A stretch of 64,000 nt of DNA from an uncultured Bacilli bacterium (GCA_910584085.1 CAJTZY010000002.1:61043-125042); one strand, 5' to 3'; positions 14,208-46,572 are shown, counted from the stretch's first letter. Numbers and translations: made by a program. Notes: generated from the letters alone by a model not told the origin.

Positions 14208-14223
14208 ATGTTATAATTAATTT

Positions 14224-14256
14224 GACATTTTTTTTAAATGTGGTATTATAGTATGC
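14224..14256 (+). promoter_or_regulatory. sigma-A promoter with extended -10 (TTGACA ... TGgTATTAT)
   Basis: TTGACA, 16-17-nt spacer, TGGTATTAT, about 25 nt upstream of the J-domain gene start. Confidence 0.55.
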
Positions 14257-14278
14257 AAAAAAAGGGGGGGGAATAGCA

Positions 14279-15607
14279 ATGACGAATGGTACTAGAAATT
14301 TTACTTATGATGGTAAAATGAATTATGAAAGGGCTAAAAAGGAATTAGAATTAAGCGACTCATTTACTGATAATGAATTAAAAAAAGCATATCATAAATT
14401 ATCATATAAGTATCACCCTGATTTAAATGGTATAACTGATGAAGAAAAATACTCTTTTTCTGAACATATGAAAGCAATCAATGATGCTTATAAATATTTA
14501 AAAAATCAAACTATTGAAAAATACAAAGAAGAAAAATTTGAACAGTTTGTTCATTCAATACACTGTCAATCATTAAAAGAAACAATTAAAATTAAATATT
14601 TAGGAAGTAAAGTAGCAAGTTTAATAATTGACTTAAGTACTTCATTTTCAATTGTAAAAAGTAAAGAAGAAGTAGATACTTTAATTAATAAAGCGTATAA
14701 AGATTTTGATGATATACTAGTATCTTTTGTAGATGAATTTTGTGAAAAAAATGGAATAACAAAACAAGATTTAAATATATGCTTTAATTTAACCTTGGAA
14801 TTGAAAAATAGAGATCCAAAACAATTATGTTTCAAATTAGATGATGCATTAAAAAAAATCAAAGAAATTAAAATAGAACAAATTATTCAAGGATATATAG
14901 GATATGCTGGATATGCAGATATTAAGGATAAAATTGATATATTAAAAAACCAAGCAATTAATTCGAAAGATAAAATAAATGAAATATTAAAAAAACTTAA
15001 ATGTAGTATTGATAAAACTTTTGAAAATTACTTTAATAATATTAAATTAAAAGATGAATTATCTAAAACTTATAAATCAGTTAATGGAGAGGAAGTATTA
15101 GGTTCATCAATTTTATCAGATTTAAGTAATATATATATTTCAAAAAGTGCTTTTATTAATGGTAGATCATTTTTTGTACAAAAAGGTAGTAAAATAAATG
15201 GTAAAATATATAGAGTAAATGGTAGTGATGTTTCATTACAAGGTGTTTTTATATATAAAGATTATATTTCATTAGCGGATGCTTTTGTTAATTTTAAAGA
15301 AGAAGACAAAATAACTTTTCATAGATTTTTAGAACATGGACCTATTTATGTAATATATAGTTTCGGTGATAGATATATTTGTTTTGAAGAAGATTCAAAT
15401 GGAGAAATTAGAGTAAAAATATATAGGTCTGATGAATTATCATTAGAAGATAGAAAAAACGAATTCATTAAAGATTTGTATAAAATTCAATATGAAAAAT
15501 ATACTAAAAATAAAATTAAATCTATATCAGAAATATTAAATAAAACTATAGATGAATATGAATTTGAAAATAAATCTATGGGGAAAAGAAAAATTTTAAG
15601 AAGATGA
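14279..15607 (+). CDS. J-domain (DnaJ-like) protein with a large C-terminal extension
   Basis: N-terminal KKAYHKLSYKYHPDLNG (HPD tripeptide). 442 aa. Confidence 0.7.
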   Translation: MTNGTRNFTYDGKMNYERAKKELELSDSFTDNELKKAYHKLSYKYHPDLNGITDEEKYSFSEHMKAINDAYKYLKNQTIEKYKEEKFEQFVHSIHCQSLKETIKIKYLGSKVASLIIDLSTSFSIVKSKEEVDTLINKAYKDFDDILVSFVDEFCEKNGITKQDLNICFNLTLELKNRDPKQLCFKLDDALKKIKEIKIEQIIQGYIGYAGYADIKDKIDILKNQAINSKDKINEILKKLKCSIDKTFENYFNNIKLKDELSKTYKSVNGEEVLGSSILSDLSNIYISKSAFINGRSFFVQKGSKINGKIYRVNGSDVSLQGVFIYKDYISLADAFVNFKEEDKITFHRFLEHGPIYVIYSFGDRYICFEEDSNGEIRVKIYRSDELSLEDRKNEFIKDLYKIQYEKYTKNKIKSISEILNKTIDEYEFENKSMGKRKILRR

Positions 15608-15620
15608 AAAACATTATAAT

Positions 15621-16193
15621 ATGTTGAAATTGGGGGAAAAAATGTTTATGGAAAAAATTATAAGATTAGATAATCCAAGTTATAAAAAAATTGATTATTC
15701 GGATTATGTGGGAGAAACTAAAAAAGAAATTTTAAAGCTAAAAAAGGAAATTATAAAAAAAATACCTAAGGAAAATATAGTAGGGTTATGCTGTACTTCT
15801 GGCTATGCTATGGGATACCTGGAAAATGATAAATCAGAAATACTTGATGAAGTACGTGAATATGTTGTTATAAGTGTCAAAGGTCTTTTAGTTGAAGGAT
15901 TTGCATTAGATAAATGTGCACACGTAGTTAATCAAGAATATCCAACATGCAGTGAGAATAATATATTGTTATTTCTACCACTTATTTGTATCGATAATAT
16001 GAAATATGAACAAAGAAAAAAGTATATTTCTAATTTGGAAAAATTGGGTTATATTGAATTACCACCATTTTTTGCTGAAAAAACAGAAAATGAATTAATA
16101 GAATTATTTGAAAATAATAAGTTCAAATCATTAGAAGAAGAAACACCTGAAAAAGTATCTACTGTTAAAGTTTCAAAAATACATTCTTTATAA
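15621..16193 (+). CDS. hypothetical protein (alternative start at 15642 has the better RBS)
   Basis: ORF with a GGGGGAA RBS before the ATG at 15642. Confidence 0.45.
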   Translation: MLKLGEKMFMEKIIRLDNPSYKKIDYSDYVGETKKEILKLKKEIIKKIPKENIVGLCCTSGYAMGYLENDKSEILDEVREYVVISVKGLLVEGFALDKCAHVVNQEYPTCSENNILLFLPLICIDNMKYEQRKKYISNLEKLGYIELPPFFAEKTENELIELFENNKFKSLEEETPEKVSTVKVSKIHSL

Positions 16194-16442
16194 TAATAAA
16201 ATTGAGAATGGAAAAAATTTTATGTCAAAATTAATTGAAAATACTAAATCTAGTATTAAGAAAAAATAGAGTAATCTATTTTTTTAATTATTGAAAAATA
16301 TAGATAATTTAAGAAATCGCCTTATTTAAAGGTATATTTGTAATATTTCTAGTTTAATTTACTACTAATTTACTACTTTACAAAAAAGAGCTTTGATATG
16401 TTTTGAAATAATTACAAGTTAAATAAAAACAATTAGCGAATA

Positions 16443-16637
16443 CTAATTGCTTTTTTTGTTTGATTTAACCTCTTTAAAATCTATATTCTTTATAGCAAAG
16501 TCTAGGCACTGACTTATGAGTTCATTTCTACTAATATTGATTTTGTTTGCAATTTTATCGAGTTCTTCTACTCTATAATCTTCAATTCTTATAGTAATGA
16601 CAATTTTATCACTTTTAACAGGTTGAAATCTTTTCAT
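16443..16637 (-). CDS. ribbon-helix-helix (CopG/Arc-like) DNA-binding protein
   Basis: MKRFQPVKSDKIVITIRIEDYRVEELDKIANKINISRNELISQCLDFAI, an RHH pattern. AAGGAGAGAGAGG RBS. A hairpin plus T-tract terminator lies at 16420-16450. Confidence 0.6.
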   Translation of the reverse strand: MKRFQPVKSDKIVITIRIEDYRVEELDKIANKINISRNELISQCLDFAIKNIDFKEVKSNKKSN

Positions 16638-16691
16638 TTGTCGCACCTCTCTCTCCTTACATATATATTGTAATCTTTTTATACTAGTAAT

Positions 16692-16708
16692 AATATGTTC
16701 AAAATTTG
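16692..16708. promoter_or_regulatory. perfect palindrome TGTTCAAAATTTGAACA in a divergent promoter region, putative RHH operator
   Basis: 8-bp inverted arms around a central A, sitting between the RHH gene (-) and the 16770 gene (+). Confidence 0.5.
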
Positions 16709-16769
16709 AACACAAATGCATTGCTGTTATCGGTATTTTGTGATAAAATTAGATATAAGGAGTGAGAAA

Positions 16770-17636
16770 ATGAAGTTTTTAGGTATTGAAATAAGCAAAA
16801 AATTGCTTATAGGAATTATTGCAAGTGTAGTTGTCGTAGGTGGTGGAGTTACGACGGGAATTATTTTAATGAATAATAAAGATAATCAGAGGCAAGAAGA
16901 AAAACAAAAAGATACTATATCATTGAAAGACGATTTAAAATTTGAAATCAATAGCGAAGTTAATTTATTATCTTTAGTTAGCGAAGATAACAAAGTAAAA
17001 ATATTAAGTGAAGACGAAACAATAGATACTTCTACTTTAGGCGAAAAAGAAATCACTATCAAATATGAAGTAGAAGAAAAAGAAGAAACAAAAACTTTTA
17101 AAATAACTATTGAAGATACACAAGCCCCTACTATTGAATATCAAAAAGAATTAAGCACAAATGTCGGAAGTAAAATTGATTTATTAAAAGGTGTTAAAGT
17201 TATTGATAATTCAAAAGAAGAAATTAAAGCCACTATTGAGGGCGATTATAATTTTGATAGCGAGGGAACATATAATCTGAAATATGTTGCAGTTGATAGT
17301 AGTAACAACAAGAAAGAAGAAGAATTTATTTTAAAAGTAAATAAACCCACTTGTAATCAAAAAAGTGGTAGTTGGAGTACATCAAAACCAAGTTCATTAT
17401 GTGAATATACTACAAAAAAATTAGTATGGCGTTGGCAATTATACGAAGATATGGACGGCAATTCTAATTGGGTATGGACAATAGATGTTAATTATAATGG
17501 TATGGTAGGAAGTGCCTTACCAAATCAAGTAAATAGTAGTTATGAAGAATATAAATATTTATCTACACAACCAAAAGAAACATACAACGATAACCAAGAA
17601 CACGAAAAATATATAACTGTTTATATTATTAAATAA
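16770..17636 (+). CDS. membrane-anchored protein with two Ig-like (DUF5011-type) repeats
   Basis: N-terminal TM segment IGIIASVVVVGGGVTTGIIL. Two roughly 70-aa repeats (ISLKDD...KITIEDTQAPTIEY / ...KATIEGDYNFDSEGTYNLKYVAVDSSNN). Confidence 0.6.
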   Translation: MKFLGIEISKKLLIGIIASVVVVGGGVTTGIILMNNKDNQRQEEKQKDTISLKDDLKFEINSEVNLLSLVSEDNKVKILSEDETIDTSTLGEKEITIKYEVEEKEETKTFKITIEDTQAPTIEYQKELSTNVGSKIDLLKGVKVIDNSKEEIKATIEGDYNFDSEGTYNLKYVAVDSSNNKKEEEFILKVNKPTCNQKSGSWSTSKPSSLCEYTTKKLVWRWQLYEDMDGNSNWVWTIDVNYNGMVGSALPNQVNSSYEEYKYLSTQPKETYNDNQEHEKYITVYIIK

Positions 17637-17716
17637 GTTAAAACAAGAAGTAGTATTTATAAATGTTTTAATAATAGATACTACTTTTATTTTGCAGAAT
17701 AGAAAGGAAAGTTTTT

Positions 17717-17932
17717 ATGTTAGAAAATATTTTTAAAATTTTAGGTGTTATAGGTTTTATTGCTATTTGCATGATGGCATTTGTTATTCCTAGTAACCCT
17801 TATGAAATTATCCCTAGTTATACTTATATGGGTTTTGATAAGCCTTTATGGCTATGTATTATACTTGGAGGAGGCTTTTTATACTTAATCATTTTGTATA
17901 GCATATATGATTTTATAAATAAGAGAATATGA
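17717..17932 (+). CDS. small membrane protein (2 TM)
   Basis: 71-aa hydrophobic ORF with an RBS. Confidence 0.5.
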   Translation: MLENIFKILGVIGFIAICMMAFVIPSNPYEIIPSYTYMGFDKPLWLCIILGGGFLYLIILYSIYDFINKRI

Positions 17933-18159
17933 AAATTATAGAAAAAGAAGTTAAACAAGAGGAAAATATTTATATATTTTATAATATTATTGAATTGTTA
18001 TATTTGCACTACCGTGATAAATTATCAAAAAAAATTATTACACAGTTATATAAATTATATAAAGAAGCTTTAAAAGAAATTGAAAAAGATTATGTAGATT
18101 TAGACATAATACAATGTGATTTAGTTGAAAAATTAAAATTTGAGGATACTAAAAAATAG
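17929..18159 (+). CDS. hypothetical protein
   Basis: 76-aa ORF overlapping the previous stop. Followed by the hairpin AAAAAATAGTGG...CCACTATTTTTTT (18149-18188). Confidence 0.45.
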   Translation: MKIIEKEVKQEENIYIFYNIIELLYLHYRDKLSKKIITQLYKLYKEALKEIEKDYVDLDIIQCDLVEKLKFEDTKK

Positions 18160-18240
18160 TGGATCATAACAAAGCCCACTATTTTTTTGTTAAATTATTT
18201 ATTTTTCCCCAAAACTTTTATATTTATGCGAAAATTTTTA

Positions 18241-18300
18241 AAAAAATGTCATTTTTTGGAAAAAATTGTCAATTTTTATGAATAGGGTCAAATTTTGTAG
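18241..18300. repeat. three 20-bp phased direct repeats, each centred on a (T)GTCA palindrome (iteron/operator-like)
   Basis: aaaaaATGTCAtttttt / aaaaaTTGTCAattttt / agGGTCAaatttt, with GTCA at 18248, 18268 and 18288, an exact 20-bp period. Units 1 and 2 are themselves 8-bp-arm palindromes. Confidence 0.55.
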
Positions 18301-18441
18301 TGATAATATGTAATGTAAGATAGAAAAAGTCTTACTAAAATGAGAGAAAATATAACGAAAAAGTCATTTAACTTATATTAACCTCTATCCGAACAAAGTA
18401 GGACGTTCTCTCTAGGGTAAGTTAAGTGTTAGAAAGGTAAA

Positions 18442-18774
18442 TTGTGTATGAACGATAATAAGAATATTCCAAAGGTTAAAGATTTAAAATTCGATACTAA
18501 AGCTATGTTTGGTGAAACGTTTGGACTATCCGATATTGACGAAGTTGCAATTTGGAAAGACAATGTTAAAACTAACGAATTTGAATACATATACGATTTA
18601 GTGTGTGTCGATAAGAAAATGAAACATATCTACGTAAAATATCCTCGTAAAATAATGGATACTCCAGAAGATATTGTTCCAGTTGAAGTTAATGATTTAG
18701 AAGTTAGTCCATATGTAAGAGACGGAAGACTATATCTAAACATAAAAGCCTCAAATATTAAATTAATGAAATAA
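18442..18774 (+). CDS. hypothetical protein
   Basis: 110-aa ORF. Confidence 0.45.
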   Translation: MCMNDNKNIPKVKDLKFDTKAMFGETFGLSDIDEVAIWKDNVKTNEFEYIYDLVCVDKKMKHIYVKYPRKIMDTPEDIVPVEVNDLEVSPYVRDGRLYLNIKASNIKLMK

Positions 18775-18833
18775 TAAGAGAGCTTAAATGCTCTCCCCTC
18801 TTAAGAGAGGGAGAATAGGAGAAACAATAAATA

Positions 18834-19325
18834 ATGATAAATAATATAAAGGAGCTTCAAAAAAAAGAAGCTATTAAACGATTACAAATATTAACTGAAA
18901 AATTTGATTTAAAATCAAATATACTAGAAGATTTTAAAAAGGATAAAATAAGTTTATCTATTGAAAAATATCTTACTAGTATAGATAGTAAATCTACATT
19001 TGGAGAAATAGTTAAACTACACGAGCAACATAACAATTCACTAGCTTATTACGGTATTGTATTTAAGGCTTTTGATATGCTTATGTTTGCTATTTTAACA
19101 GTTAGTCCATATATAGAGGACTGGGAAAAAGAAAGAGAACTTTTATATAAATATGATAATTTAATATGTTTAAGTGGATATGCTTACAATTTAGATATTC
19201 CAAATAAATGTACTGAATTTATAAATATGATTATAACAAGTGTAAATGGAGCTTTAACTTTTGAAAATGGAACAGTTAAACTTCCAGTTTTACAAGAAAT
19301 TAAGATATATAAGGAGAATGTTTAA
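18834..19325 (+). CDS. hypothetical protein
   Basis: 163-aa ORF. Preceded by an imperfect hairpin CTCCCCTCTTAAGAGAGGGAG. Confidence 0.45.
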   Translation: MINNIKELQKKEAIKRLQILTEKFDLKSNILEDFKKDKISLSIEKYLTSIDSKSTFGEIVKLHEQHNNSLAYYGIVFKAFDMLMFAILTVSPYIEDWEKERELLYKYDNLICLSGYAYNLDIPNKCTEFINMIITSVNGALTFENGTVKLPVLQEIKIYKENV

Positions 19326-19699
19326 TGATAAAAATAATAAATGAAATAATTGATATTGAAAATATCAAAAATGAAGAAATAAAGTATCTATTTATAGAAG
19401 CTAACAATTATATGAATAGTGATAATGTAGAAAATTATATGAAAGCATTATTAAATTATGACAAAATAATAGCACTTGCTGAAAAAATAGGAGATTATGC
19501 AATATGGCCTAAAGCATATTTTGGCTTATATCTAGTATGGGCTAATTATTGTAAAAAAAGTAAAATGCAAGAAAGAAGTAGCTTATTACTTCATTTCATA
19601 GATTTTGCTACTTCTTATGCTGAAAGCTTTAATCAAAAAGAATTAGCAGATAAAATATGGCAAGTATCCGAAGAGTATATAGAAAAGGAGAAAGAATAA
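19325..19699 (+). CDS. hypothetical protein, paralog of the next ORF
   Basis: ALLNYDKIIALAEKIGDYAIWPKAYFGLYLVWANYC compared with ALSNYNEFLNIGERFKDYSRHHEGYWGMYLTWYNHC in the next gene. Confidence 0.45.
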   Translation: MIKIINEIIDIENIKNEEIKYLFIEANNYMNSDNVENYMKALLNYDKIIALAEKIGDYAIWPKAYFGLYLVWANYCKKSKMQERSSLLLHFIDFATSYAESFNQKELADKIWQVSEEYIEKEKE

Positions 19700-20049
19700 T
19701 GGAAGAAAAATTTGTACCTATTATTGATTTAGGGAAAAAAAGAGAGAGGCTTTTAAAGGAAGCCGAAATTTATAGAAAAAATGGTGAAATAGCAAAAGCA
19801 CTATCAAACTATAATGAATTTTTAAATATTGGAGAGAGATTTAAAGATTATTCTAGACATCACGAGGGATATTGGGGTATGTATCTTACTTGGTATAATC
19901 ATTGCCTATTATGTAAGGACTGGAGTACTTTAGTTGAAGATTTATACAATGTAGCTCTAGTATATGCACCCAGTGAAAAGCAAGAAGAATATAAAAAAAT
20001 TTACGAGAAAAATCTAAAATCTTTTAATCAAGAAATTTCTAATAAGTAA
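19700..20049 (+). CDS. hypothetical protein, paralog of the previous ORF
   Basis: ATG 19700 with a GGAGAAAG RBS. Terminator hairpins AGAGAGATATGTTCTCTCT and TCCCTACCATTAGGGA follow at 20053-20095. Confidence 0.45.
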
Positions 20050-20099
20050 TTAAAGAGAGATATGTTCTCTCTTCCCTACCATTAGGGAAAAAAGGAGTA

Positions 20100-21323
20100 A
20101 TGATTTTAATGATACATAATTTACTGAAAAAAATTAATTATATTAAAAGCTATATCGTTCTATTATATATAATATTTGCTCAATTAATGTGGCATTGTAA
20201 AGAGTACGTTTTAATTGAATTAATGAACGTGAAACAAAACTCTATACTATATTATATTTATGTGTTAAGTCTAGGTGGAGTTCTAACCTTTATTTTACTA
20301 GCAATAATCATAACTTTAAAACCACTTAATTTAAAAAAAGAAAACAATAAAAAAGATACTAAAATTATGTCAGATATAGGAATAAAAAATAAAAATGGAG
20401 AAATACCAGTAAAATATAAAATATTTAAAAGCGATTTTAAAGAAAATGGACTTATAATTAGATTCATAAGCAAGAATATTCCTCAAGCAAAATTCGAAGA
20501 ATATAAACCAAATTTAGAAAGAGCTTACGATATAAATATATATAGATTTAAAGAAATACCAAGTAAACAAAAATATATAGATATATATTGTGTACCTAAA
20601 GAATATGACACCATTAGAGATTTTGTCTTATCAAATGAAGATACATTTAAAAATAATTTCATACACGAATTAGTAATTGGAGGTACAAGAAGTGGTAAAA
20701 CATACTACACTAAAGGCGAAGTCGCTAAAGTAATAATGAATTTAGAAAATATAAATAAAGATGAAAAAATTGAACTTTTTATAGCCGATTTTAAAAATGA
20801 GGATTTTATACAATTTAAAAATTGTACTAATTATTATGGCTATCTTAATGCTGTTGACGGTATAAACAAAGTTTATGACATTATGAATAAAAGAGCCGAA
20901 AGTGGCGAAAATAATTCTAATTATAGTACTATAATTTTACTTATTGACGAATATAGTTCTTTACTTGATTATTTAAGTATAATAAATAAAACTCAAGCAA
21001 ACACTTTAAAAGGTAATGTAGCTAGTTTACTAAAAATGGGAGCTAGTAAAAAAATTAAATTATTAGTCGTAGACCAAGGTGGATATTCGGAAATATTTTC
21101 TGGGGCTAGGCTGAATTTCAAAAGTATAGTGGGTTTTTCTCAATTAAATGAAAGTCATATAAATATGTTTTTTAAAGACTATGATATTAAAGAAATAAAT
21201 TCACAAGGAGAAGCTTATTTATGGGAAGAAGGTAAATCGGAGTTAACTAGATTTAGGGTTATTAAATATAGTGAAGAGGAAGAAAAACTAATTGATAAAA
21301 TTTTAGGGAGTAAGCTATCTTAA
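20100..21323 (+). CDS. FtsK/SpoIIIE/TcpA-like DNA-translocase ATPase (coupling-protein-like)
   Basis: N-terminal TM region. Walker A GGTRSGKT and Walker B LLIDEYSS. In the position of Tn916 orf21. Confidence 0.65.
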   Translation: MILMIHNLLKKINYIKSYIVLLYIIFAQLMWHCKEYVLIELMNVKQNSILYYIYVLSLGGVLTFILLAIIITLKPLNLKKENNKKDTKIMSDIGIKNKNGEIPVKYKIFKSDFKENGLIIRFISKNIPQAKFEEYKPNLERAYDINIYRFKEIPSKQKYIDIYCVPKEYDTIRDFVLSNEDTFKNNFIHELVIGGTRSGKTYYTKGEVAKVIMNLENINKDEKIELFIADFKNEDFIQFKNCTNYYGYLNAVDGINKVYDIMNKRAESGENNSNYSTIILLIDEYSSLLDYLSIINKTQANTLKGNVASLLKMGASKKIKLLVVDQGGYSEIFSGARLNFKSIVGFSQLNESHINMFFKDYDIKEINSQGEAYLWEEGKSELTRFRVIKYSEEEEKLIDKILGSKLS

Positions 21324-21334
21324 TAGCAAGTTAG

Positions 21335-21400
21335 GTTTAATCGTGGCCGTACGGCGACACGAAGTGAGAGCCAGTACGATCCACGAGGCCACCGTAGGTG
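21335..21400. promoter_or_regulatory. GC-rich (about 60%) palindrome cluster, putative oriT / nick site / double-strand origin
   Basis: cgtgGCCGTACGGCgacacg contains the perfect 10-bp palindrome GCCGTACGGC; aGGCCACCgtaGGTGGCt forms a 6-bp stem. The region is embedded in roughly 28% GC DNA between the ATPase and Rep genes, the same position as oriT in Tn916 (orf21/orf20 intergenic). Confidence 0.5.
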
Positions 21401-21450
21401 GCTATTGACTTGACTTATGAAACACAAAAGAAAGTATCATAATTATTTTT

Positions 21451-22356
21451 ATGAAGATAGAAGTATTAAAAAATAACCCTATACGTTTAACAGACGAAAG
21501 CCAAGTTATTTACAAAGAAGCTAATCAAAAAGTGGAAATTAAGCACGTAGCAAAAAATACTGGTGGATATATCCGAAGAATTGACAAAGACCACTATTAT
21601 ACTGTACGTGATGGCGAAGTACATACTTTTAATCATAAAGCAAAGTCTAGAAAAGATACAATTAACTCACTAAAGAGAAGTTTTTCAAAACTTAAAGAAC
21701 TTATTGATATTAACTGTACCGAGCCTAAAAAAGTGCAATTTATTACTTTTACTTTCCGTGAAGTAGTTCGAGATACAAAGGTTGTCTATGATAGTTTTAA
21801 AAAATTTAATTATAGATACAAAAGATATTTAAAAAAACATAATCTACCGAGTGAATATTCCTATATTGTGGTTTTAGAGGCACAGGGGCCGAAACACGGC
21901 TACTGTTGGCACTTGCATTGCTTATACATTTTCAAAAATTGTAAAAAAGCTCCATACGTTCCGAACGAAACGATACAAACTAATATATGGAAGCTCGGAC
22001 ACACAAGTACAAGTTCCTTAAAAGGAATAAAAAGCATATCCAACTATTTAGTATCTTACTTAACCGACGTTTGTCTTGATGAAGAGAATATGAAAAAATT
22101 AAAGGGAAAAAAAGGAGATAAAGCCGTGGTAAAAAATGAGAGGCTTAAGTATTATCCAGTTGGTGTTAGATTATTTCGTACAAGCCGTAATATTGTACGA
22201 GCTAGTATAACAAAAATGACGGAAGCAGAAGCACAAAGAAAGCTAGGAGATAATTCTATTTTAACTTATGAAAAAACTCTACGTATATCTAACTATGAGA
22301 ATACAACTATAAATATTGTAAATTATAGACACTATAATAAAATAAATAAAAAATAA
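21451..22356 (+). CDS. HUH-type rolling-circle Rep/relaxase (Rep_trans-like)
   Basis: HGYCWHLHCLYIF (HUH motif H-L-H) with downstream Tyr candidates. 301 aa. Adjacent to the putative oriT. Confidence 0.6.
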   Translation: MKIEVLKNNPIRLTDESQVIYKEANQKVEIKHVAKNTGGYIRRIDKDHYYTVRDGEVHTFNHKAKSRKDTINSLKRSFSKLKELIDINCTEPKKVQFITFTFREVVRDTKVVYDSFKKFNYRYKRYLKKHNLPSEYSYIVVLEAQGPKHGYCWHLHCLYIFKNCKKAPYVPNETIQTNIWKLGHTSTSSLKGIKSISNYLVSYLTDVCLDEENMKKLKGKKGDKAVVKNERLKYYPVGVRLFRTSRNIVRASITKMTEAEAQRKLGDNSILTYEKTLRISNYENTTINIVNYRHYNKINKK

Positions 22357-22419
22357 ATATTTATTCATTACTGAGGAAAGGAAAAGGTGTCATTTTTAAT
22401 TATAAGGAGATGATGTCTT

Positions 22420-22683
22420 TTGAATAAAGAAGAAACAAAATATATACGTCCTAGTAATCAAGAGTTAAATAAGAATTATAATAGCAGTATTGACGTACCT
22501 ATTTGGGAAAAATACACACTTACTATTGAAGAAGCTTCTAAATACTTCCGTATAGGCGAAAATAAGCTCCGTAAACTTGCAGAAGAAAATATCACGTCAA
22601 ATTGGGTTATTTTAAACGGTAATCGTATCCAAATCAAACGAAAACAGTTTGAAAGCCTAATTGATAAGCAAAACACAATTTAA
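22420..22683 (+). CDS. xis: excisionase, Tn916 Xis-like
   Basis: [31 protein letters not shown]...[13 protein letters not shown] closely matches the Tn916 Xis sequence as recalled. TTG start with a TAAGGAGA RBS. Confidence 0.8.
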
Positions 22684-22761
22684 GTGAAAATGAGCCTAAA
22701 AATGTGTTATAATGAATATGCATATCAAGGCTCTTTCTTAATTGAGAGGAGCTAATAAAAT

Positions 22762-24054
22762 ATGACTAAAAGACGTGATAATAGACAACGTTTATTACAT
22801 AATGGAGAGAGCCAAAGAAAAGACGGAAGATATGCTTTTAAATATATTGATACTTTTGGAAAACCACAATTTATATATTCGTGGCGACTTGTACCAACGG
22901 ATAAGACACCAGTAGGTAAGCGAAATGACTTATCTTTACGAGAAAAAGAAAAGATTTTACAAAGAGATATTGACGACGGAATAGACACGATAGGTAAAAA
23001 AATGACAGTATGTCAATTGTATTCAAAACATACACGACAACGTGGAAATGTTAAGGATAATACTGAAATAGGACGTAATAGACTTATGAAGCTATTAGAA
23101 GAAGATAAGCTCGGTCATTGTGCTATTGAAAAGGTAAATATATCCGATGCAATAGATTTTGTAATTCGTATGAAAGAAAAAGGAATAGCTTATAAAACTA
23201 TAAGTAATGATAAAAGGTCTTTAAAGGCCACTTTTTATACAGCTATACGAAATAATTGTATAAGAACTAACCCTTTTGATTTCCAAATCAGTGAGGTACT
23301 AAAAGACGATACAAAGCCAAAAGTACCACTTACACAAGAACAAGAGGATAGTTTGTTATTATTTATTCAAAGTGATAATGTTTACTATAAATACTATGAC
23401 GATGTTATTCTCCTTTTAGAAACTGGACTACGTATTTCTGAATTTTGTGGACTAACTGAAAAAGACATTGATTTTGAAAACCGACTAATCAATGTAGACC
23501 ACCAACTATTAAGAAACAAGAAGCGAGGCTACTATATTGAAGAGCCTAAAACTGAAAAAGGAAAGCGAAAAATACCTATGAGCGAAAAGGCTTATATAGT
23601 ATTTAAACGTGTAATAGAAAGAAGCAAGAAATATGATAAGTCAATAACTATTGACGGATATAGTGGCTTTATATTTATAAAAAATAATGGTTATCCTAAA
23701 GTATGTTGTGATTATGATAGTGTATTTCGTGGTATAAAGAAGAAGTATAATAAAAAAAGCAATAGTATAGCTCTACCCAATGTTATGACACCTCATACAC
23801 TACGTCATACATTTTGTACGAACTGGGCTAATGCAGGTATGAACCCTCATACTCTACAATACATAATGGGTCATGCAAATATTCTTATTACACTAAGTTA
23901 TTATACACACCCTACCTATATGTCGGCTCAAGCTGAAATGGAGAGAATACGAAAACAACAACAAATTTACTACTCTTGTACTACTTTTGAAAGCGAAAAT
24001 ATAAAAAGTAATAACAATTTATGTGAATATCTTCCACAATTAAAAATGTCTTAA
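22762..24054 (+). CDS. int: tyrosine integrase, Tn916 Int-Tn family
   Basis: N-terminal MTKRRDNRQRLLHNGESQRKDGRYAFKYIDTFGKPQFIYSWRL and C-terminal HTLRHTFCTNWANAGMNPHTLQYIMGHANI...YYTH (R-H-R-Y catalytic region) align along the whole length to Int-Tn as recalled. Confidence 0.9.
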   Translation: MTKRRDNRQRLLHNGESQRKDGRYAFKYIDTFGKPQFIYSWRLVPTDKTPVGKRNDLSLREKEKILQRDIDDGIDTIGKKMTVCQLYSKHTRQRGNVKDNTEIGRNRLMKLLEEDKLGHCAIEKVNISDAIDFVIRMKEKGIAYKTISNDKRSLKATFYTAIRNNCIRTNPFDFQISEVLKDDTKPKVPLTQEQEDSLLLFIQSDNVYYKYYDDVILLLETGLRISEFCGLTEKDIDFENRLINVDHQLLRNKKRGYYIEEPKTEKGKRKIPMSEKAYIVFKRVIERSKKYDKSITIDGYSGFIFIKNNGYPKVCCDYDSVFRGIKKKYNKKSNSIALPNVMTPHTLRHTFCTNWANAGMNPHTLQYIMGHANILITLSYYTHPTYMSAQAEMERIRKQQQIYYSCTTFESENIKSNNNLCEYLPQLKMS

Positions 24055-24196
24055 AACCTTATAAATAAAGGATATAAAGACATTTAAGAATATTTAAAAA
24101 AATAGTTAAAAATTATATATTATTTTCATACTAAAAATAAATAAATTAAAAATTGCTAATAGATTAAAAATAATGTATAATTAGATTGGTGATTGT

Positions 24197-25027
24197 ATGA
24201 ATAATGTATATAAATCAGAAGAAGAATTTTTAAAAAATTACAATTCAGATGATTTTGAAAAATTATCTATGACAGCTGATATATTAATATTTAGTGTATC
24301 TAGTGAAGAAAGTGATAATTACAGGAAGACTGATAAAAAGAAAATGAGTATATTACTTGTAAAGAGAAATAATTATCCTTTTAAGGATAAATGGTGCTTG
24401 CCAGGTGGTTTCGTAGATATAAACGAGGATTTAGATGATGCACCTGTTAGAATACTTAAAAGGGAAACTAATATAGATAATATATATCTTGAACAATTAT
24501 ATACATTTGGTGATACTAAAAGGGATCCACGTATGAGAGTTGTATCTACTTCTTATATTGCTCTTATAGATAAAAATAGATTGGATAAGAATATAAGTGG
24601 TGATTCTTCATGGTTTGATATAGCGCTTTTAGAAGAAAAGGATAATATCGTTGATATAGTTTTAGATAATGGCCGTGAAACAATTAAGTTTACTATAGAG
24701 AAGATATTAAGGGAAAAAACTACTGATAGATATTCATTTAAAGTACTTGAAAATAAATCTTTGGCTTTTGATCATCCTATTGTTATATTATCTGGAATAG
24801 AAAGACTAAAGAATAAAATAGAGTATACTGATATAGTATTTAATATGATGCCAGAGTTATTTACTTTAGGTGAACTTCAACAGGTTTATGAAGTAATTCT
24901 TGGTAAAAAATTATTAGATCCAGCTTTTAGAAGAATAATTGCAAATAAAGTTGAGAAAACTAAGAAAATGAAAACAGGTGGAGGACATCGGCCATCCGCA
25001 CTCTTTAAATATAAAAATAATTTATGA
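24197..25027 (+). CDS. nrtR: NrtR-like regulator: degenerate Nudix domain fused to a C-terminal winged helix
   Basis: GGFVDINEDLDDAPVRILKRETN has Gx5E but lacks the canonical RE spacing. C-terminal ...ELFTLGELQQVYEVILGKKLLDPAFRRII resembles the NrtR wHTH. 276 aa. Confidence 0.6.
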   Translation: MNNVYKSEEEFLKNYNSDDFEKLSMTADILIFSVSSEESDNYRKTDKKKMSILLVKRNNYPFKDKWCLPGGFVDINEDLDDAPVRILKRETNIDNIYLEQLYTFGDTKRDPRMRVVSTSYIALIDKNRLDKNISGDSSWFDIALLEEKDNIVDIVLDNGRETIKFTIEKILREKTTDRYSFKVLENKSLAFDHPIVILSGIERLKNKIEYTDIVFNMMPELFTLGELQQVYEVILGKKLLDPAFRRIIANKVEKTKKMKTGGGHRPSALFKYKNNL

Positions 25028-25061
25028 GAGATTAACTTTTCTTTTGATTGTGGGTGAAAGC

Positions 25062-25541
25062 ATGAAAGTAACACATGAATTTGGCCCCTTTTATGATGAA
25101 CATTCTAAAATATTAATATTAGGTAGTATTCCATCACCAAAATCTAGAGAACTTGGGTTTTATTATATGCACCCTCAAAACAGATTTTGGAGTGTTTTAT
25201 CTCATATATTTGGTGAGGATATTCCAGTTACAATAATAGATAAGAAGAAATTTTTAAAAAGACATAATATTGCTTTATGGGATGTTTTAGAGTCTTGTGA
25301 AATAGAAGGTGCGAGTGATAGTAGTATAAAGGATCCAATACCTAATGATATTGAAAAAATATTAAAATCATCAAAGATAGAAAAAATTTATACAACAGGC
25401 ATGACTGCTTATAAACTTTATAATAAATATATATTTAAAAGTGTAGGAATTGATGCAATTTGTTTACCTTCTACTTCAAGTGCGAACGCTAAAATGAATT
25501 TTGATTCATTAGTTTACGAATATAAAAAAATATTAGATTGA
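25062..25541 (+). CDS. uracil-DNA-glycosylase-superfamily DNA glycosylase (family 6/HDG- or Mug-like)
   Basis: ILILGSIPSPKSRELGFYYMHPQNRFW (G-S-x-P-S motif A). Start moved to ATG 25062, which has a GGGTGA RBS; the ORF-track start at 24978 overlaps the nrtR-like gene. Confidence 0.6.
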   Translation: MKVTHEFGPFYDEHSKILILGSIPSPKSRELGFYYMHPQNRFWSVLSHIFGEDIPVTIIDKKKFLKRHNIALWDVLESCEIEGASDSSIKDPIPNDIEKILKSSKIEKIYTTGMTAYKLYNKYIFKSVGIDAICLPSTSSANAKMNFDSLVYEYKKILD

Positions 25542-35445: not shown

Positions 35446-37524
35446 ATAAAAAAATATCCACACGTTGTACAGGACGAAATAAAAGATTGTGGAGTATCAT
35501 GCTTACAGATGATAATTAATTATTATGGTGGGTATGTAAGAAAAAATATTTTACTTGATATGACAAAAACAAGTAAAGATGGAACTACTGCATATCACTT
35601 AAAGGAAACCTTAATTAATTTGGGATTTGAAGCAAAAGGGATAAGTTGCAATTTAGAGGACATTAATCAGGAGAATATAGTTCTTCCTTGTATTGCAAAT
35701 GTTATAATAGATAACTCCTATAAACACTTTATAGTTATATATGAAATAAATTTTAGGAAAAAATATTTAATTATAGGAGATCCTGCAGATAAAATAAAGA
35801 AAATAACATATCAAGAATTCGACAAAATATTTAACAATGTATTAATTACTTGTTACCCTATAAAAACTTTGCCGGTGAGCAAAGATATTTCAATTATACA
35901 ATTCATGTTTCATTCATTAAATCCTTATAAAAAACTTCTATTAAACATCTTTGTTTTATCTATCTTTATAACCATCTTTTCTATACTTACAAGTTTTTAT
36001 ACAGAATATATGATTAATGGGATAAATACATATTCTAAAAATTATCTATTATTAATTTTTTGTATCTTCTTTTCTATATATGCCTTGAAACTTTTATCAG
36101 ATTACTTTAGAAATAAAACATTATCATATATCAATCAAAAACTCGATCTTGTACTTACTTTAGATATTTATAATAAAATTATAAAACTTCCTTATTGCTA
36201 TTACAAAAATAGGACAACCGGTGATGTATTATCTAGAATAAATGATTTAGATAATGTAAGAGAAATGATTAGTAAAGTATCTCTTTCGCTTTTTGTTGAT
36301 TTACCACTTACAATAATATCTTTAATAGTTTTATACTTAATAAATTCTACATTATTTATGATTGGACTAGCTATATTATTTCTATATTTTATAATAATTA
36401 TTTTATTTAGGGGATTATTTAATGATTATATTAAAAAAATACAGACTAAAAAAAGCGAATCTACATCATATATGATAGAGTCTATTAGTGGGTTTGAAAC
36501 AGTAAAAGGTATCCATTTAGAAAATAGTGTTATAGATAAGTTTGAGAAAAAATATGTTAAATTATTAAAAGATATTTTTAATTATCAAAATTTATATTTT
36601 CTTCAAAATTTATTTAAAGAAATAATAAATAATATTGGTTTTATTTTAATTACATTTGTTGGATGTGTTTTAGTTATTGAAGATAAAATTCAAGTTGGGA
36701 CATTATTTACATTTAACGCACTTCTTGTATATTTTTTAGAACCTATAAAAAATATTATTAATTTAGATAATACTATAAAAGAAGCAAAAAATTCCTTAAA
36801 AAGAGTTTTAGATATGGTTACTTATAATAAAGAAGATATCGGAGTAATTAGTGAATTTAAAAATGGGAATATTGACGTGAAAAATTTAGACTTTTCATTT
36901 AATGATAGAGATTATATTTTAAAAAATGTAAATTTATCTATTAATATGGGTTCAAGAGTTATGGTAGTTGGTAAAAGTGGAAGTGGTAAAAGTACATTAT
37001 TTAAAATTTTGATGAAGTACTATAATATTAAAAATAATAGTATATTTATTAATAATGTAGATATAAATGATTATGAAATGCGTGCTATAAAAGATAATAT
37101 TTTATATTTAAGTCAAAATGAGATTTTATTTAATGATACCTTATACAATAATTTAATTTTTGATAATAGTGATTGTTCTAAACTTAATATGGTTTCAGAT
37201 ATGTGTTGTTTGAGAGAAGTTATGGATAGTAATCTTGGATTTAATATGCTTATAGAAGAGAACGGATTTAACTTATCTGGTGGGGAAAAGCAGAGAATCG
37301 TACTTGCTAGAACATTACTTAAGCCTTTTGAAATTTTAATAATTGATGAGGGTCTTAGTCAGGTAGATGTTAGTTTAGAAAGAAAAATATTAAAAAATAT
37401 TTTTAAAAATTTTAGTGATAAAACTATAATTATGATTTCTCATAGGCTAGAAAATTTAGATTTGTTTGATAGTTTAGTTAGAATAGAGAATGGAGTTGTT
37501 AAAGATGTATGCAAAAATGGATAA
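35446..37524 (+). CDS. bacteriocin-type ABC exporter with an N-terminal C39 peptidase domain; start codon uncertain
   Basis: The frame is open from 35434. KYPHVVQDEIKDCGVSCLQMIINYYGG (C39 catalytic Cys region) lies upstream of the first ATG at 35509. TM domain; Walker A GKSGSGKST, LSGGEKQR, Walker B ILIIDE. The only in-frame candidate after the AAGGAGGTGA RBS is ATA at 35446. Confidence 0.75.
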   Translation: MKKYPHVVQDEIKDCGVSCLQMIINYYGGYVRKNILLDMTKTSKDGTTAYHLKETLINLGFEAKGISCNLEDINQENIVLPCIANVIIDNSYKHFIVIYEINFRKKYLIIGDPADKIKKITYQEFDKIFNNVLITCYPIKTLPVSKDISIIQFMFHSLNPYKKLLLNIFVLSIFITIFSILTSFYTEYMINGINTYSKNYLLLIFCIFFSIYALKLLSDYFRNKTLSYINQKLDLVLTLDIYNKIIKLPYCYYKNRTTGDVLSRINDLDNVREMISKVSLSLFVDLPLTIISLIVLYLINSTLFMIGLAILFLYFIIIILFRGLFNDYIKKIQTKKSESTSYMIESISGFETVKGIHLENSVIDKFEKKYVKLLKDIFNYQNLYFLQNLFKEIINNIGFILITFVGCVLVIEDKIQVGTLFTFNALLVYFLEPIKNIINLDNTIKEAKNSLKRVLDMVTYNKEDIGVISEFKNGNIDVKNLDFSFNDRDYILKNVNLSINMGSRVMVVGKSGSGKSTLFKILMKYYNIKNNSIFINNVDINDYEMRAIKDNILYLSQNEILFNDTLYNNLIFDNSDCSKLNMVSDMCCLREVMDSNLGFNMLIEENGFNLSGGEKQRIVLARTLLKPFEILIIDEGLSQVDVSLERKILKNIFKNFSDKTIIMISHRLENLDLFDSLVRIENGVVKDVCKNG

Positions 37525-42859: not shown

Positions 42860-43822
42860 ATGAAAATATATAATCAAATTTACAAGCAAATTAAAAAGTA
42901 CAATAAAATAGTAATTGCAAGGCATATTGGGCCAGATCCTGATGCTTTAGGAAGTACCTTAGGGTTAAAGGAAGCTATTTTAAATACATTTCCTAAAAAA
43001 CAAGTATATGTAGTGGGAGCTCCAGCTTCTAGGCATAAGTATTTAGGTGAATTAGATAGATTTACAGATGATATGTATGAAAATTCATTACTCATTGTGC
43101 TTGATACTCCAAATATTAAGAGAATCGATGGTGTAGATATAAGTAAATTTGAAGTAAGAATAAAAATAGATCACCATCCATTTATAGAAAAATTTGCAGA
43201 TATAGAATGGGTAGATGATACAGCTAGTAGTGCCTCACAATTAGTTATAGAATTAATTAAAAATACAAAACTTAAAGCAAATAAGTTATGTGCCGAGAAA
43301 CTTTATATAGGTATTATTGGAGATACCAATAGATTTTTACACAGTTATACAACACCTAAAACATTTGAACTTGTTGCCTACATTATAAAGAAAACTGGAA
43401 TTAATTTTACAGATCTTTATGAAAATATGTATTTAAGATCTATTCATGATTTAAAATTTCAATGTTATGTAATAAATAATTTAACAATTACAGATAACGG
43501 ATTTGGGTATATAAAATTAAATCAAGACATATTAGACGAGTTTGGAATAGACTCATCTACTGCTACTAATGTGGTAAATGAATTAACGTTTATAGAAGGG
43601 ATGTATTCATGGGCTATATTTGCCTATGATAAAATTAATAATAATATAAGGGGTTCTATAAGGTCTAGAGGACCAATTGTAAATACGATTGCTTCAAATT
43701 ATAATGGCGGTGGACATGCACTCGCATCAGGAGTTAGAGTAGAAAATTTTGATGTAATTGATAATTTAATAAATGACTTGGATAGTGTGTGCAAAAAATA
43801 TAAAAATGAAAATAATTTATAG
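42860..43822 (+). CDS. nrnA: DHH-family phosphoesterase, NrnA-like nanoRNase / pAp phosphatase
   Basis: DHH region and the DHHA1 GGGH motif (NYNGGGHALASG). Confidence 0.8.
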   Translation: MKIYNQIYKQIKKYNKIVIARHIGPDPDALGSTLGLKEAILNTFPKKQVYVVGAPASRHKYLGELDRFTDDMYENSLLIVLDTPNIKRIDGVDISKFEVRIKIDHHPFIEKFADIEWVDDTASSASQLVIELIKNTKLKANKLCAEKLYIGIIGDTNRFLHSYTTPKTFELVAYIIKKTGINFTDLYENMYLRSIHDLKFQCYVINNLTITDNGFGYIKLNQDILDEFGIDSSTATNVVNELTFIEGMYSWAIFAYDKINNNIRGSIRSRGPIVNTIASNYNGGGHALASGVRVENFDVIDNLINDLDSVCKKYKNENNL

Positions 43823-43830
43823 GTGATTAT

Positions 43831-45306
43831 ATGAATAAAAAGGGTTTTACTTTAATAGAACTATTAGGTGTTATTATAATACTTTCATTAATTATGATAT
43901 TTGCTGTTCCTAAAATTTCTGATTCAGTAAAAAATCAAACTCAAAAGACTGATAAATTAACCGAAGATATTATATATAAAGCTACAAATTTATATATTGA
44001 AGATAATAAAGATGAGTATAGAAATAAAAATGGTGCAATTTATTGTATTTCATTAAATGAGTTATCTAAACTAGAATATTTAAGCAATACAGTTAATAAT
44101 GATATTATAAACACAAAAACTGTTAAAGTTATTAGTAAGAAAAATTTTAACTATGAATTAGTAGATAATGATAAATGTGTAGAAAATTTTCCACCACTTG
44201 AACCTAATTTACATAATAATAGTTTAATTCCTGTAGTATATAAAAATGAAAATTGGGTGGTAGTTGATAAGACAGACAAAAGTTGGTATGACTATGAAAA
44301 TCAAGAATGGGCAAATGCTGTAATACTAAAAAGTGGAGTAAATAAAAATATTGGAGATACTATAGATGTATCAAATGAGGTCCAGGGAATGTTTGTATGG
44401 ATACCAAGATACGAATATAAAATAGAGGGTACTTATGGAACACACTTAGATGGTACAGTTGGAACGCAGTCACTTCCGGGAGAGATAAAGGTTAACTTTA
44501 TAGGTACATCTAAGACTCAATCAAGTGATGGTTACATAATTCATCCAGCATTTACATTTGGAGATGAAATACTATCTGGAATATGGGTAGGTAAATTTGA
44601 AACAACTGGAACGGCTGAAAGTCCAACAATACTTCCAAGTGTAACATCACTTAGAAATCAAAATATAAGTACGCAGTTTGCAACTGCACAAAAATTTAAT
44701 CAGTATCTGTCAAATGGAGATAGCCATATGTCTAAAAATAGTGAATGGGGAGCTGTTGCATACCTATCACAGAGTATTTATGGAAAATATGGTAATCCAA
44801 ATTATACTGGTGAAGAAAAGGAAGTAGCAATCAACAATTGTTCTAGTTATATAACAGGTGTCGGCGGAGACACTGTAAGTGCAGAAGCATCAGCAGATAC
44901 ATGTGGGACGAATACATATGAAACCGAAAAAGGACAATCAGCTAGTACAACTGGAAATATAACTGGTGTATATGATATGAGTGGGGGAGCTTATGAAAGG
45001 GTAATGGGAGTATATAATAGACTTTTAAAAGATAGTGGTTTTGTAGAACTTCCAGAACCAAAGTATTACAACAATTATTTAACAGATAATATACAAATAG
45101 CATGCGATGGGAAACCTTGTTATGGATGTGCTTTATCTGAAACAAGCAAATGGTATAATGATTATTCAACATTTTTAGTAACTAACTATCCATGGATTAA
45201 TAGAAGTGGATGCACAACAGATACTAAAAATGCTGGAATATTTATGTATCATTATAATAGCGGGGCAGGATATAATAGAGACTCATTCCGTATTGTAATT
45301 TCTTAA
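43831..45306 (+). CDS. type IV pilin-like protein with prepilin N-terminus and a large C-terminal domain
   Basis: MNKKG|FTLIELLGVIIILSLIMIF: cleavage after Gly, Glu at +5, hydrophobic helix. 491 aa. A terminator GAAACACTTATGTGTTTC follows at 45325-45345. Confidence 0.7.
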   Translation: MNKKGFTLIELLGVIIILSLIMIFAVPKISDSVKNQTQKTDKLTEDIIYKATNLYIEDNKDEYRNKNGAIYCISLNELSKLEYLSNTVNNDIINTKTVKVISKKNFNYELVDNDKCVENFPPLEPNLHNNSLIPVVYKNENWVVVDKTDKSWYDYENQEWANAVILKSGVNKNIGDTIDVSNEVQGMFVWIPRYEYKIEGTYGTHLDGTVGTQSLPGEIKVNFIGTSKTQSSDGYIIHPAFTFGDEILSGIWVGKFETTGTAESPTILPSVTSLRNQNISTQFATAQKFNQYLSNGDSHMSKNSEWGAVAYLSQSIYGKYGNPNYTGEEKEVAINNCSSYITGVGGDTVSAEASADTCGTNTYETEKGQSASTTGNITGVYDMSGGAYERVMGVYNRLLKDSGFVELPEPKYYNNYLTDNIQIACDGKPCYGCALSETSKWYNDYSTFLVTNYPWINRSGCTTDTKNAGIFMYHYNSGAGYNRDSFRIVIS

Positions 45307-45396
45307 GAATTTATTAAATTTGAAACACTTATGTGTTTCTTTTCTTTATTTATAGATTTAATAAAATAAATATGATAAAATATTAATGGTGATACG

Positions 45397-46572
45397 ATGA
45401 AAAAGAGTATTAGGGAAATAGATTTAAATAATAAAAAAGTAATAATAAGAGTAGATTTTAATGTACCTATAAAAGATGGAATAATACTTGATGATAATAG
45501 AATAATTGCAAGTTTAAAAACAATAAACTATGCAATAAAAAATGGTGCAAAAGTAATACTTATGAGTCACTTAGGTAGAATTAAAGAAGAAAAGGATAAA
45601 GATAAAAATACTTTAAAACCTGTTTCTATAAGACTTAGTGTGCTTTTAGGAAAACCTGTTTTATTTATAAATAAAACTAGAGGGGAAGAATTAGAAAACG
45701 CTATTAACAACTTAAAAAGTGGAGAGGTTCTTTTAATGGAAAATACTAGATTCGAAGATTTGGAAGGTAAAAAAGAATCCCTAAATGATAGTGAACTTGG
45801 TAGGTATTGGGCATCTTTAGGAGATATATTTATTAATGATGCATTTGGGACAAGCCATAGGTCTCATGCATCTAATGTAGGAATATCAAAATTTTTGCCA
45901 AGTGGGATGGGTTTTTTAATAGAAGAGGAATTAAGTAATTTTGATGTACTTGAAAATCCTAAAAGACCTTATACGGTAATACTTGGTGGGGCTAAAGTAA
46001 AAGACAAAATAGGCGTTATAGAAAATTTAGCAAAAAAATGTGATTATTTATTAATAGGTGGGGGAATGGCTTATACTTTTTTAAGTTCCTTAGGATATAA
46101 TGTAGGTGCTTCACTTTTGGATAAAAATTCAATAGAATTTTGTAAAAACATGTTAGAACAGTATAAAGATAAAATAGTATTACCAGTTGATTCCACTACT
46201 TCAAAAGTATTAGATGGAGATATTGAACTTAAAAATAATGATGAGTTTAAGGATGATGATATAGGACTTGATATAGGAAGTAATACTATAGATAAGTTTA
46301 AAGAAATTTTAAAAAAATCAGAAACTATAGTATGGAATGGCCCTTTGGGATATTTTGAACTTGAAAAGTATTCAGATGGTACTAAACAAATTTTGGATAC
46401 ACTTTCTAAAGAAAAAAAGATTGTAATTATAGGCGGGGGAGATACTGCAAGTGCAGCTATTAACTTTGGCTATAAAGATAAATTTACACATATTTCAACA
46501 GGAGGAGGAGCATCTTTAGAACTTCTAGAAGGTAAAACTTTACCTGGAATAGATGTTATAGATGATAAATGA
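45397..46572 (+). CDS. pgk: phosphoglycerate kinase
   Basis: 391 aa with PGK signatures (RVDFNVP..., GGGDTA...GGGAS). Confidence 0.9.
   Translation: MKKSIREIDLNNKKVIIRVDFNVPIKDGIILDDNRIIASLKTINYAIKNGAKVILMSHLGRIKEEKDKDKNTLKPVSIRLSVLLGKPVLFINKTRGEELENAINNLKSGEVLLMENTRFEDLEGKKESLNDSELGRYWASLGDIFINDAFGTSHRSHASNVGISKFLPSGMGFLIEEELSNFDVLENPKRPYTVILGGAKVKDKIGVIENLAKKCDYLLIGGGMAYTFLSSLGYNVGASLLDKNSIEFCKNMLEQYKDKIVLPVDSTTSKVLDGDIELKNNDEFKDDDIGLDIGSNTIDKFKEILKKSETIVWNGPLGYFELEKYSDGTKQILDTLSKEKKIVIIGGGDTASAAINFGYKDKFTHISTGGGASLELLEGKTLPGIDVIDDK

Follow-up and report, generated by a model that had tools for sequence, protein, structure and literature searches.

We analysed a 64-kb stretch of DNA from an uncultured Bacilli bacterium (the window, on which all positions are based; guanine-plus-cytosine (GC) content ~26%) and describe in it a compact element of ~7.8 kb, which lies at ~16292-24126 (±3 bp) in the interval between nadK and nrtR. 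From left to right, the element encodes a ribbon-helix-helix (RHH) regulator on the minus strand and then, on the plus strand, a membrane-anchored immunoglobulin-like (Ig-like) surface protein, two and then four small open reading frames (ORFs), a TcpA/FtsK-like P-loop ATPase, a candidate origin, a HUH rolling-circle replication (RCR) protein (Rep), an excisionase (Xis) and a tyrosine integrase (Int) (Table 1). An earlier note on this DNA had listed the ATPase, a GC-rich region, the HUH Rep, Xis and Int in that order, and all of them are present and intact. We read the element as an integrative mobilizable element (IME) assembled from two modules of different origin, a reading to which we give a probability of about 0.62. 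Taken as a whole, the element does not stand out in base composition (27.2% GC against 26% in the flanks), GC being raised in its right half only. The loci with which it was compared carry L numbers below.

Table 1. Features of the element and its left flank, in window positions.
Feature	Position	Strand	Remarks
Second insert, between nadK and the element	14208-16291		J-domain protein and 190-aa ORF
J-domain protein	14279-15607		PF00226 at 1.3e-9
190-aa ORF	15621-16193		left flank of the element
Left junction	16279-16291	+	host T-run 16279-16285, then proposed coupling sequence AATTAT 16286-16291; ±3 bp
Left terminal imperfect inverted repeat	16292-16310	+	core AAAAATATAGATAATTT at 16294-16310
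Left arm repeats	16356-16384	+	two tandem TTTACTACT half-sites, 11 bp apart
RHH regulator	16443-16637	-	~64 aa from internal Met; divergent from main operon
Perfect palindrome GTTCAAAATTTGAAC	16697-16711	.	divergent promoter region between RHH and Ig-like genes; identical in L002
Membrane-anchored Ig-like surface protein	16770-17636	+	288 aa from likely start
Two small ORFs	17717-18159	+	71-aa protein (two hydrophobic segments), 76-aa protein
Four small ORFs, apparently backbone	18448-20049	+	108, 163, 124 and 116 aa; gene calls in L001; homologues in L002, L005
TcpA/FtsK-like P-loop ATPase	20109-21323	+	407 aa; N-terminal membrane helices; putative coupling protein
Candidate origin (origin of transfer, oriT, or double-strand origin)	21344-21425	+	two GC-rich hairpins, then TTGACTTGAC
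HUH rolling-circle Rep	21451-22356	+	301 aa; PF23343 family by its homologues; putative relaxase and replication initiator
Tn916-type excisionase Xis	22420-22683	+	PF09035 at 5.9e-19
Tn916/Tn1549-type tyrosine integrase Int	22762-24054	+	PF02920 and PF00589; intact
Right arm repeats	23964-23992	+	TTTACTACT ... TACTACTTT, within int 3' end
Right terminal inverted repeat	24110-24126	+	ends in T-run
Right junction	24127-24137	+	proposed 6-bp coupling sequence CATACT 24127-24132, then host A-run

The recombination genes are of the kind found in the Tn916/Tn1545 family, with an Int-Tn type recombinase that has an arm-binding domain and an Xis-Tn. Xis matches the structure of Tn916 Xis (1Y6U) at E=2.5e-30 and is ~80% identical to it. 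Int matches the integrase of Tn1549 (6EN0) over residues 81-396 (E=2e-136, ~68% identical) and the N-terminal domain of Tn916 Int (1B69) over residues 3-72 (E~1e-27), and has a 34-aa C-terminal extension. These matches agree with the close likeness to Xis-Tn and the alignment with Int-Tn that the earlier note had reported. It had added that a pseudogenised integrase would speak against a mobile element; its set of catalytic residues (Arg, His-x-x-Arg, His and Tyr) is complete and Int is therefore not a pseudogene.

The ends of the element were placed on four lines of evidence. Firstly, paired arm repeats lie inside each end. They form a 29-nt direct-repeat family (D10) with TACTAC half-sites, the left and right copies being 83% identical, and are presumed to be the binding sites of the Int N-terminal domain. 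They may also resemble the DR2 site of Tn916, described in nuclear magnetic resonance work on Int bound to DNA. The left repeats are kept in L090 and the right ones in L003, L087, L088 and L090; the left pattern had no match in JGI metagenomes or IMG/VR, so that no additional left ends were gained. Secondly, the element is bounded by imperfect terminal inverted repeats, the left core matching the reverse complement of 24110-24126 at 14 of 17 positions (P~1e-4 for one fixed register). Both junctions consist of a T-run, six bases and A-rich sequence, the end pattern described for the Tn916 family (PMC12229494), and the AT-rich target, the 5-6 bp coupling sequences and the AT-rich imperfect terminal repeats of that family are all found here, at predicted cut sites. 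Thirdly, homology to other loci breaks off at these positions: homology with L090 tapers off at ~16293 on the left; on the right, L003 shows no difference from the window as far as ~24126, and L087 and L088, which have one and the same element but different flanks, part at the position corresponding to ~24126. Fourthly, the element of L090 splits a gene for an MvaI/BcnI restriction enzyme (L090 1145-1379 and 8843-9376) and inactivates it; the ends of this element, too, show a T-run, six bases and A-rich sequence, and when the predicted element is removed together with one 6-bp coupling sequence, a 249-aa ORF is obtained that matches PF15515 in one stretch over positions 2-227 of 227 (E=7.5e-41). 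From the arm repeats, the terminal repeats, the homology breakpoints and the gene restored in L090, we therefore set the ends at ~16292 and ~24126, in place of the 18160 and 24196 given earlier, which moves the left end outward by about 1.9 kb. Two other pairs of candidate ends were rejected. The AT-rich repeats at 18178 and 24108, which the earlier note had itself doubted, are not element ends, 18158-18190 being an internal terminator hairpin; and the terminal-repeat candidate 16276-16299/24082-24105 (pair I17) fails since homology to L003, L087 and L088 extends ~20 bp further.

Comparison with related genomes supports the mobility of the element. Searching with the NrtR gene retrieved 80 related loci from uncultured gut 'Bacilli bacterium' genomes, of a type once labelled Mycoplasma sp. 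CAG:776, which places the source in an RF39-like lineage. None of these 80 NrtR loci carries any gene of the element, so the possibility, raised earlier as one that would undo the proposal, that its gene order is core genome in relatives did not materialize, and sister elements occupy other sites, one of them the restriction-enzyme gene of L090. In about 29 of the 80 loci nadK stands directly upstream of nrtR, and the close relative L010 has aminotransferase-nadK-nrtR in the order seen in the window. Here, nadK and nrtR are 10 kb apart, a distance made up of the 7.8-kb element and a 2.1-kb segment to its left. The J-domain protein and the 190-aa ORF of this segment have no homologue in the NrtR loci of any of the 80 relatives, and an exact look-up of the 190-aa protein gave no match; the segment is lineage-specific and not part of the element. 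The site between the NAD genes and the NrtR gene was thus correctly proposed, but the element is not the sole insert in the gap, because this second non-conserved segment shares it. As for the comparison with element-free relatives that had been recommended, such loci exist among the 80, but the predicted empty site (...CTATTTTTTT-N6-AAAAATAAATAAATT...) did not turn up when JGI metagenomes were scanned for it, and the ends are for this reason good only to about ±3 bp. Just beyond the right junction, the nrtR promoter (TTGCTA-17-TATAAT at 24153-24181) is intact, and the direct effect of the insertion on the host is therefore probably small. A 187-aa ORF listed at 24978-25541 overlaps nrtR at the end of that gene; in L001, the gene called here encodes a 159-aa uracil-DNA glycosylase and has its start further downstream.

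Upstream of the recombination genes lies the second module, composed of the ATPase, the candidate origin and the Rep. The ATPase matches the FtsK-like PHROG 1358 (1.7e-11), and its Walker A (GxTxSGKT) and Walker B (LLIDEY) motifs are invariant in the protein and 20 homologues, all of which also have the N-terminal membrane helices. The best Foldseek match of its AlphaFold model (predicted local distance difference test score (pLDDT) 77) is the coupling protein TcpA of pCW3 (E=3e-13), followed by the FtsK motor, in keeping with the FtsK/TcpA-like assignment made from the motifs in the earlier note. The Rep matches PHROG 3419 (6.5e-9) and falls below the Pfam threshold for PF23343 itself, while homologues at 39-50% identity match that family (REP_ORF2-G2P) at 1e-17 to 1e-21; 4642 cluster representatives were recovered in a search with the profile of the Rep family, which is thus large. 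Its three RCR motifs (FITLT, HxH and YLxxYL) are invariant in the family alignment, which bears out the 301-aa HUH Rep, with relaxase as a putative role, and the top fold matches of its AlphaFold model (pLDDT 84), with weak E values (0.05-0.15), are all to endonuclease domains of HUH Reps. Sequence searches against PDB chains, with the ATPase and with the Rep, yielded no useful match. No match of the Rep to Rep_trans/MobT (PF02486) was obtained even at E<=10 and its homologues are PF23343 proteins; we therefore consider the Rep analogous, not homologous, to orf20 of Tn916. The earlier label of a Tn916-family element accordingly holds for int, xis and the end architecture, but not for the Rep.

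The hairpins of the candidate origin (21344-21405) fold much better than shuffled sequences (z=-5.56), and their pairing is kept through 4 compensatory pairs. The region is near-identical in L002 and L003, though the Rep of L003 is only 69% identical, so that the origin is more conserved than the rep gene; the distant L005 keeps the same layout, followed by TTGACTTGA. The GC-rich palindromic oriT postulated earlier is thus a conserved structure and a candidate for an origin.

We found no gene of a type IV secretion system (T4SS) among all ORFs of the element in Pfam, NCBIfam and PHROGs scans, nor among 10 large ORFs sampled over the rest of the window, which were housekeeping genes. The element thus combines its own integrase and excisionase and defined ends with a TcpA-superfamily ATPase directly upstream of a protein related to RCR initiators, as judged by fold match, Rep motifs and gene order, and has no complete mating-pore apparatus. 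It fits a known class of IMEs, previously described in streptococci, in which a tyrosine integrase is combined with a tcpA gene that precedes the gene of an RCR-type relaxase. The compact integrative element without pore genes that the earlier note had recognized is therefore what lies here; the helper T4SS on which it was said to depend is a probable requirement. Elsewhere in the window, at 35509-37524 and 42860-49516, there are a C39-peptidase ABC (ATP-binding cassette) exporter of bacteriocin type and, separately, a pilin-like ORF (43831-45306) with an N-terminal methylation motif; the row of ORFs on the same strand in which the latter stands may represent a locus for competence or type IV pili.

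The Rep family is also the source of the strongest of the four rival explanations. Full-length relatives of the Rep (27-34% identity) are the only gene of cryptic Firmicute plasmids of 1.5-1.8 kb, hence a relaxase role is not required to explain the protein, and 20 of the 21 plasmid matches are typed non-mobilizable. Together with the fact that no helper T4SS was seen in the window, this would suit an integrative rolling-circle plasmid that is not mobilized, in which Int and Xis would move the element, the Rep would only replicate the circle, the ATPase would serve segregation or another intracellular role, and spread would occur by transformation or other means. We hold this to be unlikely. 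On the free 6.7-kb plasmid pRGI00142 (HG796265, L099; 1076-4416), an FtsK_SpoIIIE ATPase stands directly upstream of a PF23343 Rep and the pair is kept despite a separate Rep_3 initiator, which suggests that the ATPase-Rep pair can serve as an add-on module apart from the replicon. Moreover, the best structural match of our ATPase is a conjugation coupling protein, its membrane anchors would be needless in a cytoplasmic partition ATPase, and the pairing with an integrase is conserved across distant relatives: those in IMG/VR retain the ATPase-Rep pair with tyrosine integrases close by.

PF23343 is, besides, the initiator domain of inoviruses and plectroviruses, and the inovirus Bajarodino virus 9 (PQ006132, L098; 1-1566) shows the same ATPase-then-Rep order, its Zot gene immediately preceding the gene of a PF23343 Rep with 31% identity to ours. 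The element could on these grounds be an integrated filamentous prophage, its Rep being the initiator, its ATPase a morphogenesis protein, and its small hydrophobic and Ig-like proteins, among them the 71-aa protein with two hydrophobic segments and the membrane-anchored 288-aa protein, serving as coat or adsorption proteins. This is very improbable, since the ATPase matches TcpA/FtsK, with no Zot/pI protein among the top 50 fold matches and no PF05707 match, the small proteins have no phage coat, single-stranded-DNA-binding or adsorption match in PHROGs, and the arm-repeat DNA pattern has no match in IMG/VR. Neither a Zot/pI-type morphogenesis ATPase nor a major coat protein, as expected of an Inoviridae prophage, was thus found.

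The genes of the left half of the element proved to be shared with sister elements. The RHH protein (PF01402 at 0.002, BrnA-like at 3e-5) is 82-94% identical in L002 and L090 and also occurs in L005; the palindrome GTTCAAAATTTGAAC upstream of its gene is a likely candidate for its operator. The Ig-like protein (Bact_surface_Ig-like at 4.4e-5, Big_3 at 0.0037), which starts with an N-terminal hydrophobic segment, is 59-83% identical in L002, L087, L088 and L090. Of the two small proteins that follow, p71 is kept in L005, L087 and L088, and p76 in L002. The four small ORFs gave no family match in Pfam, NCBIfam and PHROGs scans, and the proteins of the last two (19325 and 19699) are paralogous (36% identity, E=1e-11), as had been stated earlier for the pair 19325/19700. 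The upstream proteins p110, p163 and p130 had been called cargo; L002 and L005 keep them together with the FtsK-Rep module, and they seem to be part of the backbone. Likewise, the RHH and Ig-like genes, suspected earlier to be cargo, do belong to the element, but as a conserved backbone common to L002, L005, L087 and L090. Resistance and virulence cargo are absent and there is no obvious accessory trait.

In the sister loci, the conserved backbone begins with the minus-strand RHH gene, followed by the gene of the Ig-like membrane protein, and the RHH stop codon marks the exact point from which L002 is homologous to the window. L002 (5000-13140) carries the RHH and Ig-like genes, small ORFs, the ATPase and a 91% identical Rep, with a 631-aa serine recombinase in place of Xis-Int, while the arrangement recurs with other Rep types in L005, L087 and L090; PF02407- and PF00910-type Reps occur in sister loci. 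The sister element of L005 adjoins a DNA methylase and a BpuSI-type enzyme. This recurrence bears on the idea that we are looking at a decayed full Tn916-like conjugative transposon from which the conjugation genes have been deleted. A resemblance to Tn916 does exist in Int and Xis, in the architecture of the ends and in relative gene order. However, the Rep is not MobT, all genes are intact, and independent sister elements whose integrases and Rep types differ have this compact layout too, which indicates a stable design and not a deletion product; of the rivals, we find this one the hardest to credit.

Conservation of the Ig-like protein suggests a further possibility, a minimal self-transmissible element similar to those of actinomycetes, in which the membrane ATPase would form a DNA-export channel and the Ig-like surface protein would hold cells together, with no T4SS involved. 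The gene set parallels the Int, Xis, Rep and FtsK-like translocase of such elements, sister elements retain the Ig-like protein even where they have another replication module, and no helper was seen in the window. However, single-protein transfer of double-stranded DNA is known only from mycelial actinomycetes, and the PASTA kinase of the host implies that its wall is normal. A relationship between TcpA and TraB has been described (PMC5704250), but comparable Firmicute elements have all been read as helper-dependent (PMC5357655, PMC5704250). We consider self-transmission highly doubtful; if true, these ~8-kb elements of gut RF39-like Bacilli would be the Firmicute counterpart of actinomycete TraB-type conjugation.

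An IME would operate as follows. The Int N-terminal domain would bind the paired arm repeats inside each end, and Int and Xis would make staggered cuts around the 6-bp coupling sequences to release a circle, which could re-insert into AT-rich T-run/N6/A-run targets with no fixed attachment site, following the Tn916 model, in which recombination at AT-rich sites requires no homology and proceeds by way of heteroduplex coupling sequences. The PF23343 HUH Rep would nick the hairpin origin just upstream of its own gene, which would start rolling-circle replication of the excised circle; as a relaxase, it would stay attached to the single strand, and the membrane-anchored TcpA-like ATPase would deliver this strand to the mating pore that a conjugative element in the same cell provides. 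The RHH repressor, divergent across the perfect palindrome, probably silences the operon. Several points weigh against this account. The ATPase is below the Pfam threshold for FtsK_SpoIIIE (E=0.11); by context, the Rep family consists of replication initiators, on plasmids typed non-mobilizable by MOB-suite; no helper conjugative element was seen in the 64-kb window, as sampled by the 10 large ORFs outside the element; and no exact empty-site allele was found. Transfer, excision and nicking are, for this element, steps that we infer, and according to a 2017 review none of them had been demonstrated for any IME with this relaxase type (PMC5704250).

Compared with known systems, the element shares with Tn916 and Tn1549 the Int and Xis, the AT-rich target, coupling sequences of ~6 bp, AT-rich imperfect terminal repeats and arm repeats, and also an FtsK-like ATPase, an origin and an RCR-type nickase in the order orf21-oriT-orf20. 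Unlike them, it has no conjugation module, tetM, vanB or orf7/8/9 regulation, its putative nickase is of the PF23343 type, as judged by its homologues, and not Rep_trans/MobT, and its ATPase is only a distant relative. At 7.8 kb, it has no equivalents of the FA-type T4SS genes orf13-orf19, and its relaxase candidate is not a MobT (PF02486); for these two reasons, the element stands outside the Tn916 family of integrative and conjugative elements. Small rolling-circle plasmids have full-length homologues of the Rep, but are free circles without an integrase, those of 1.5 kb consisting of the Rep alone; pRGI00142, too, is a free circle without an integrase, although it has the FtsK-family ATPase followed by the Rep. 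The integrative conjugative elements of actinomycetes (pSAM2/SLP1 type) are likewise small and integrated and carry Int, Xis, an RCR Rep and an FtsK-like membrane ATPase, but TraB-mediated transfer of double-stranded DNA in these bacteria is tied to mycelial growth, and their lineages are unrelated to the present host.

The closest counterparts are streptococcal IMEs (Coluzzi et al. 2017, classes 2, 3, 4 and 7; PMC5357655), which are small, have tcpA immediately upstream of an RCR-type relaxase, use a tyrosine integrase and lack a T4SS. They swap modules, including the integrase, as does L002 with its serine recombinase on the same backbone, and they have PF02407- and PF00910-type Reps, as do our sister loci (PMC5357655). 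The PF23343 Rep may or may not overlap their PHA00330 relaxase class. Three things are new here. The host belongs to an uncultured RF39-like gut lineage of Bacilli, so that the mobilizable class with TcpA and an RCR relaxase would extend from streptococci to an uncultured small-genome gut lineage. In addition, 141 of the 144 streptococcal IMEs have site-specific integrases (PMC5357655), whereas the integrase here is of the low-specificity Tn916/Tn1549 type, a recombination module that has here been taken up by a non-conjugative element. Finally, the conserved RHH/Ig-like surface protein module sets this element apart from its streptococcal counterparts, and the set of sister elements, with a common backbone and exchanged integrases and Rep types, offers useful material for studies of module exchange.

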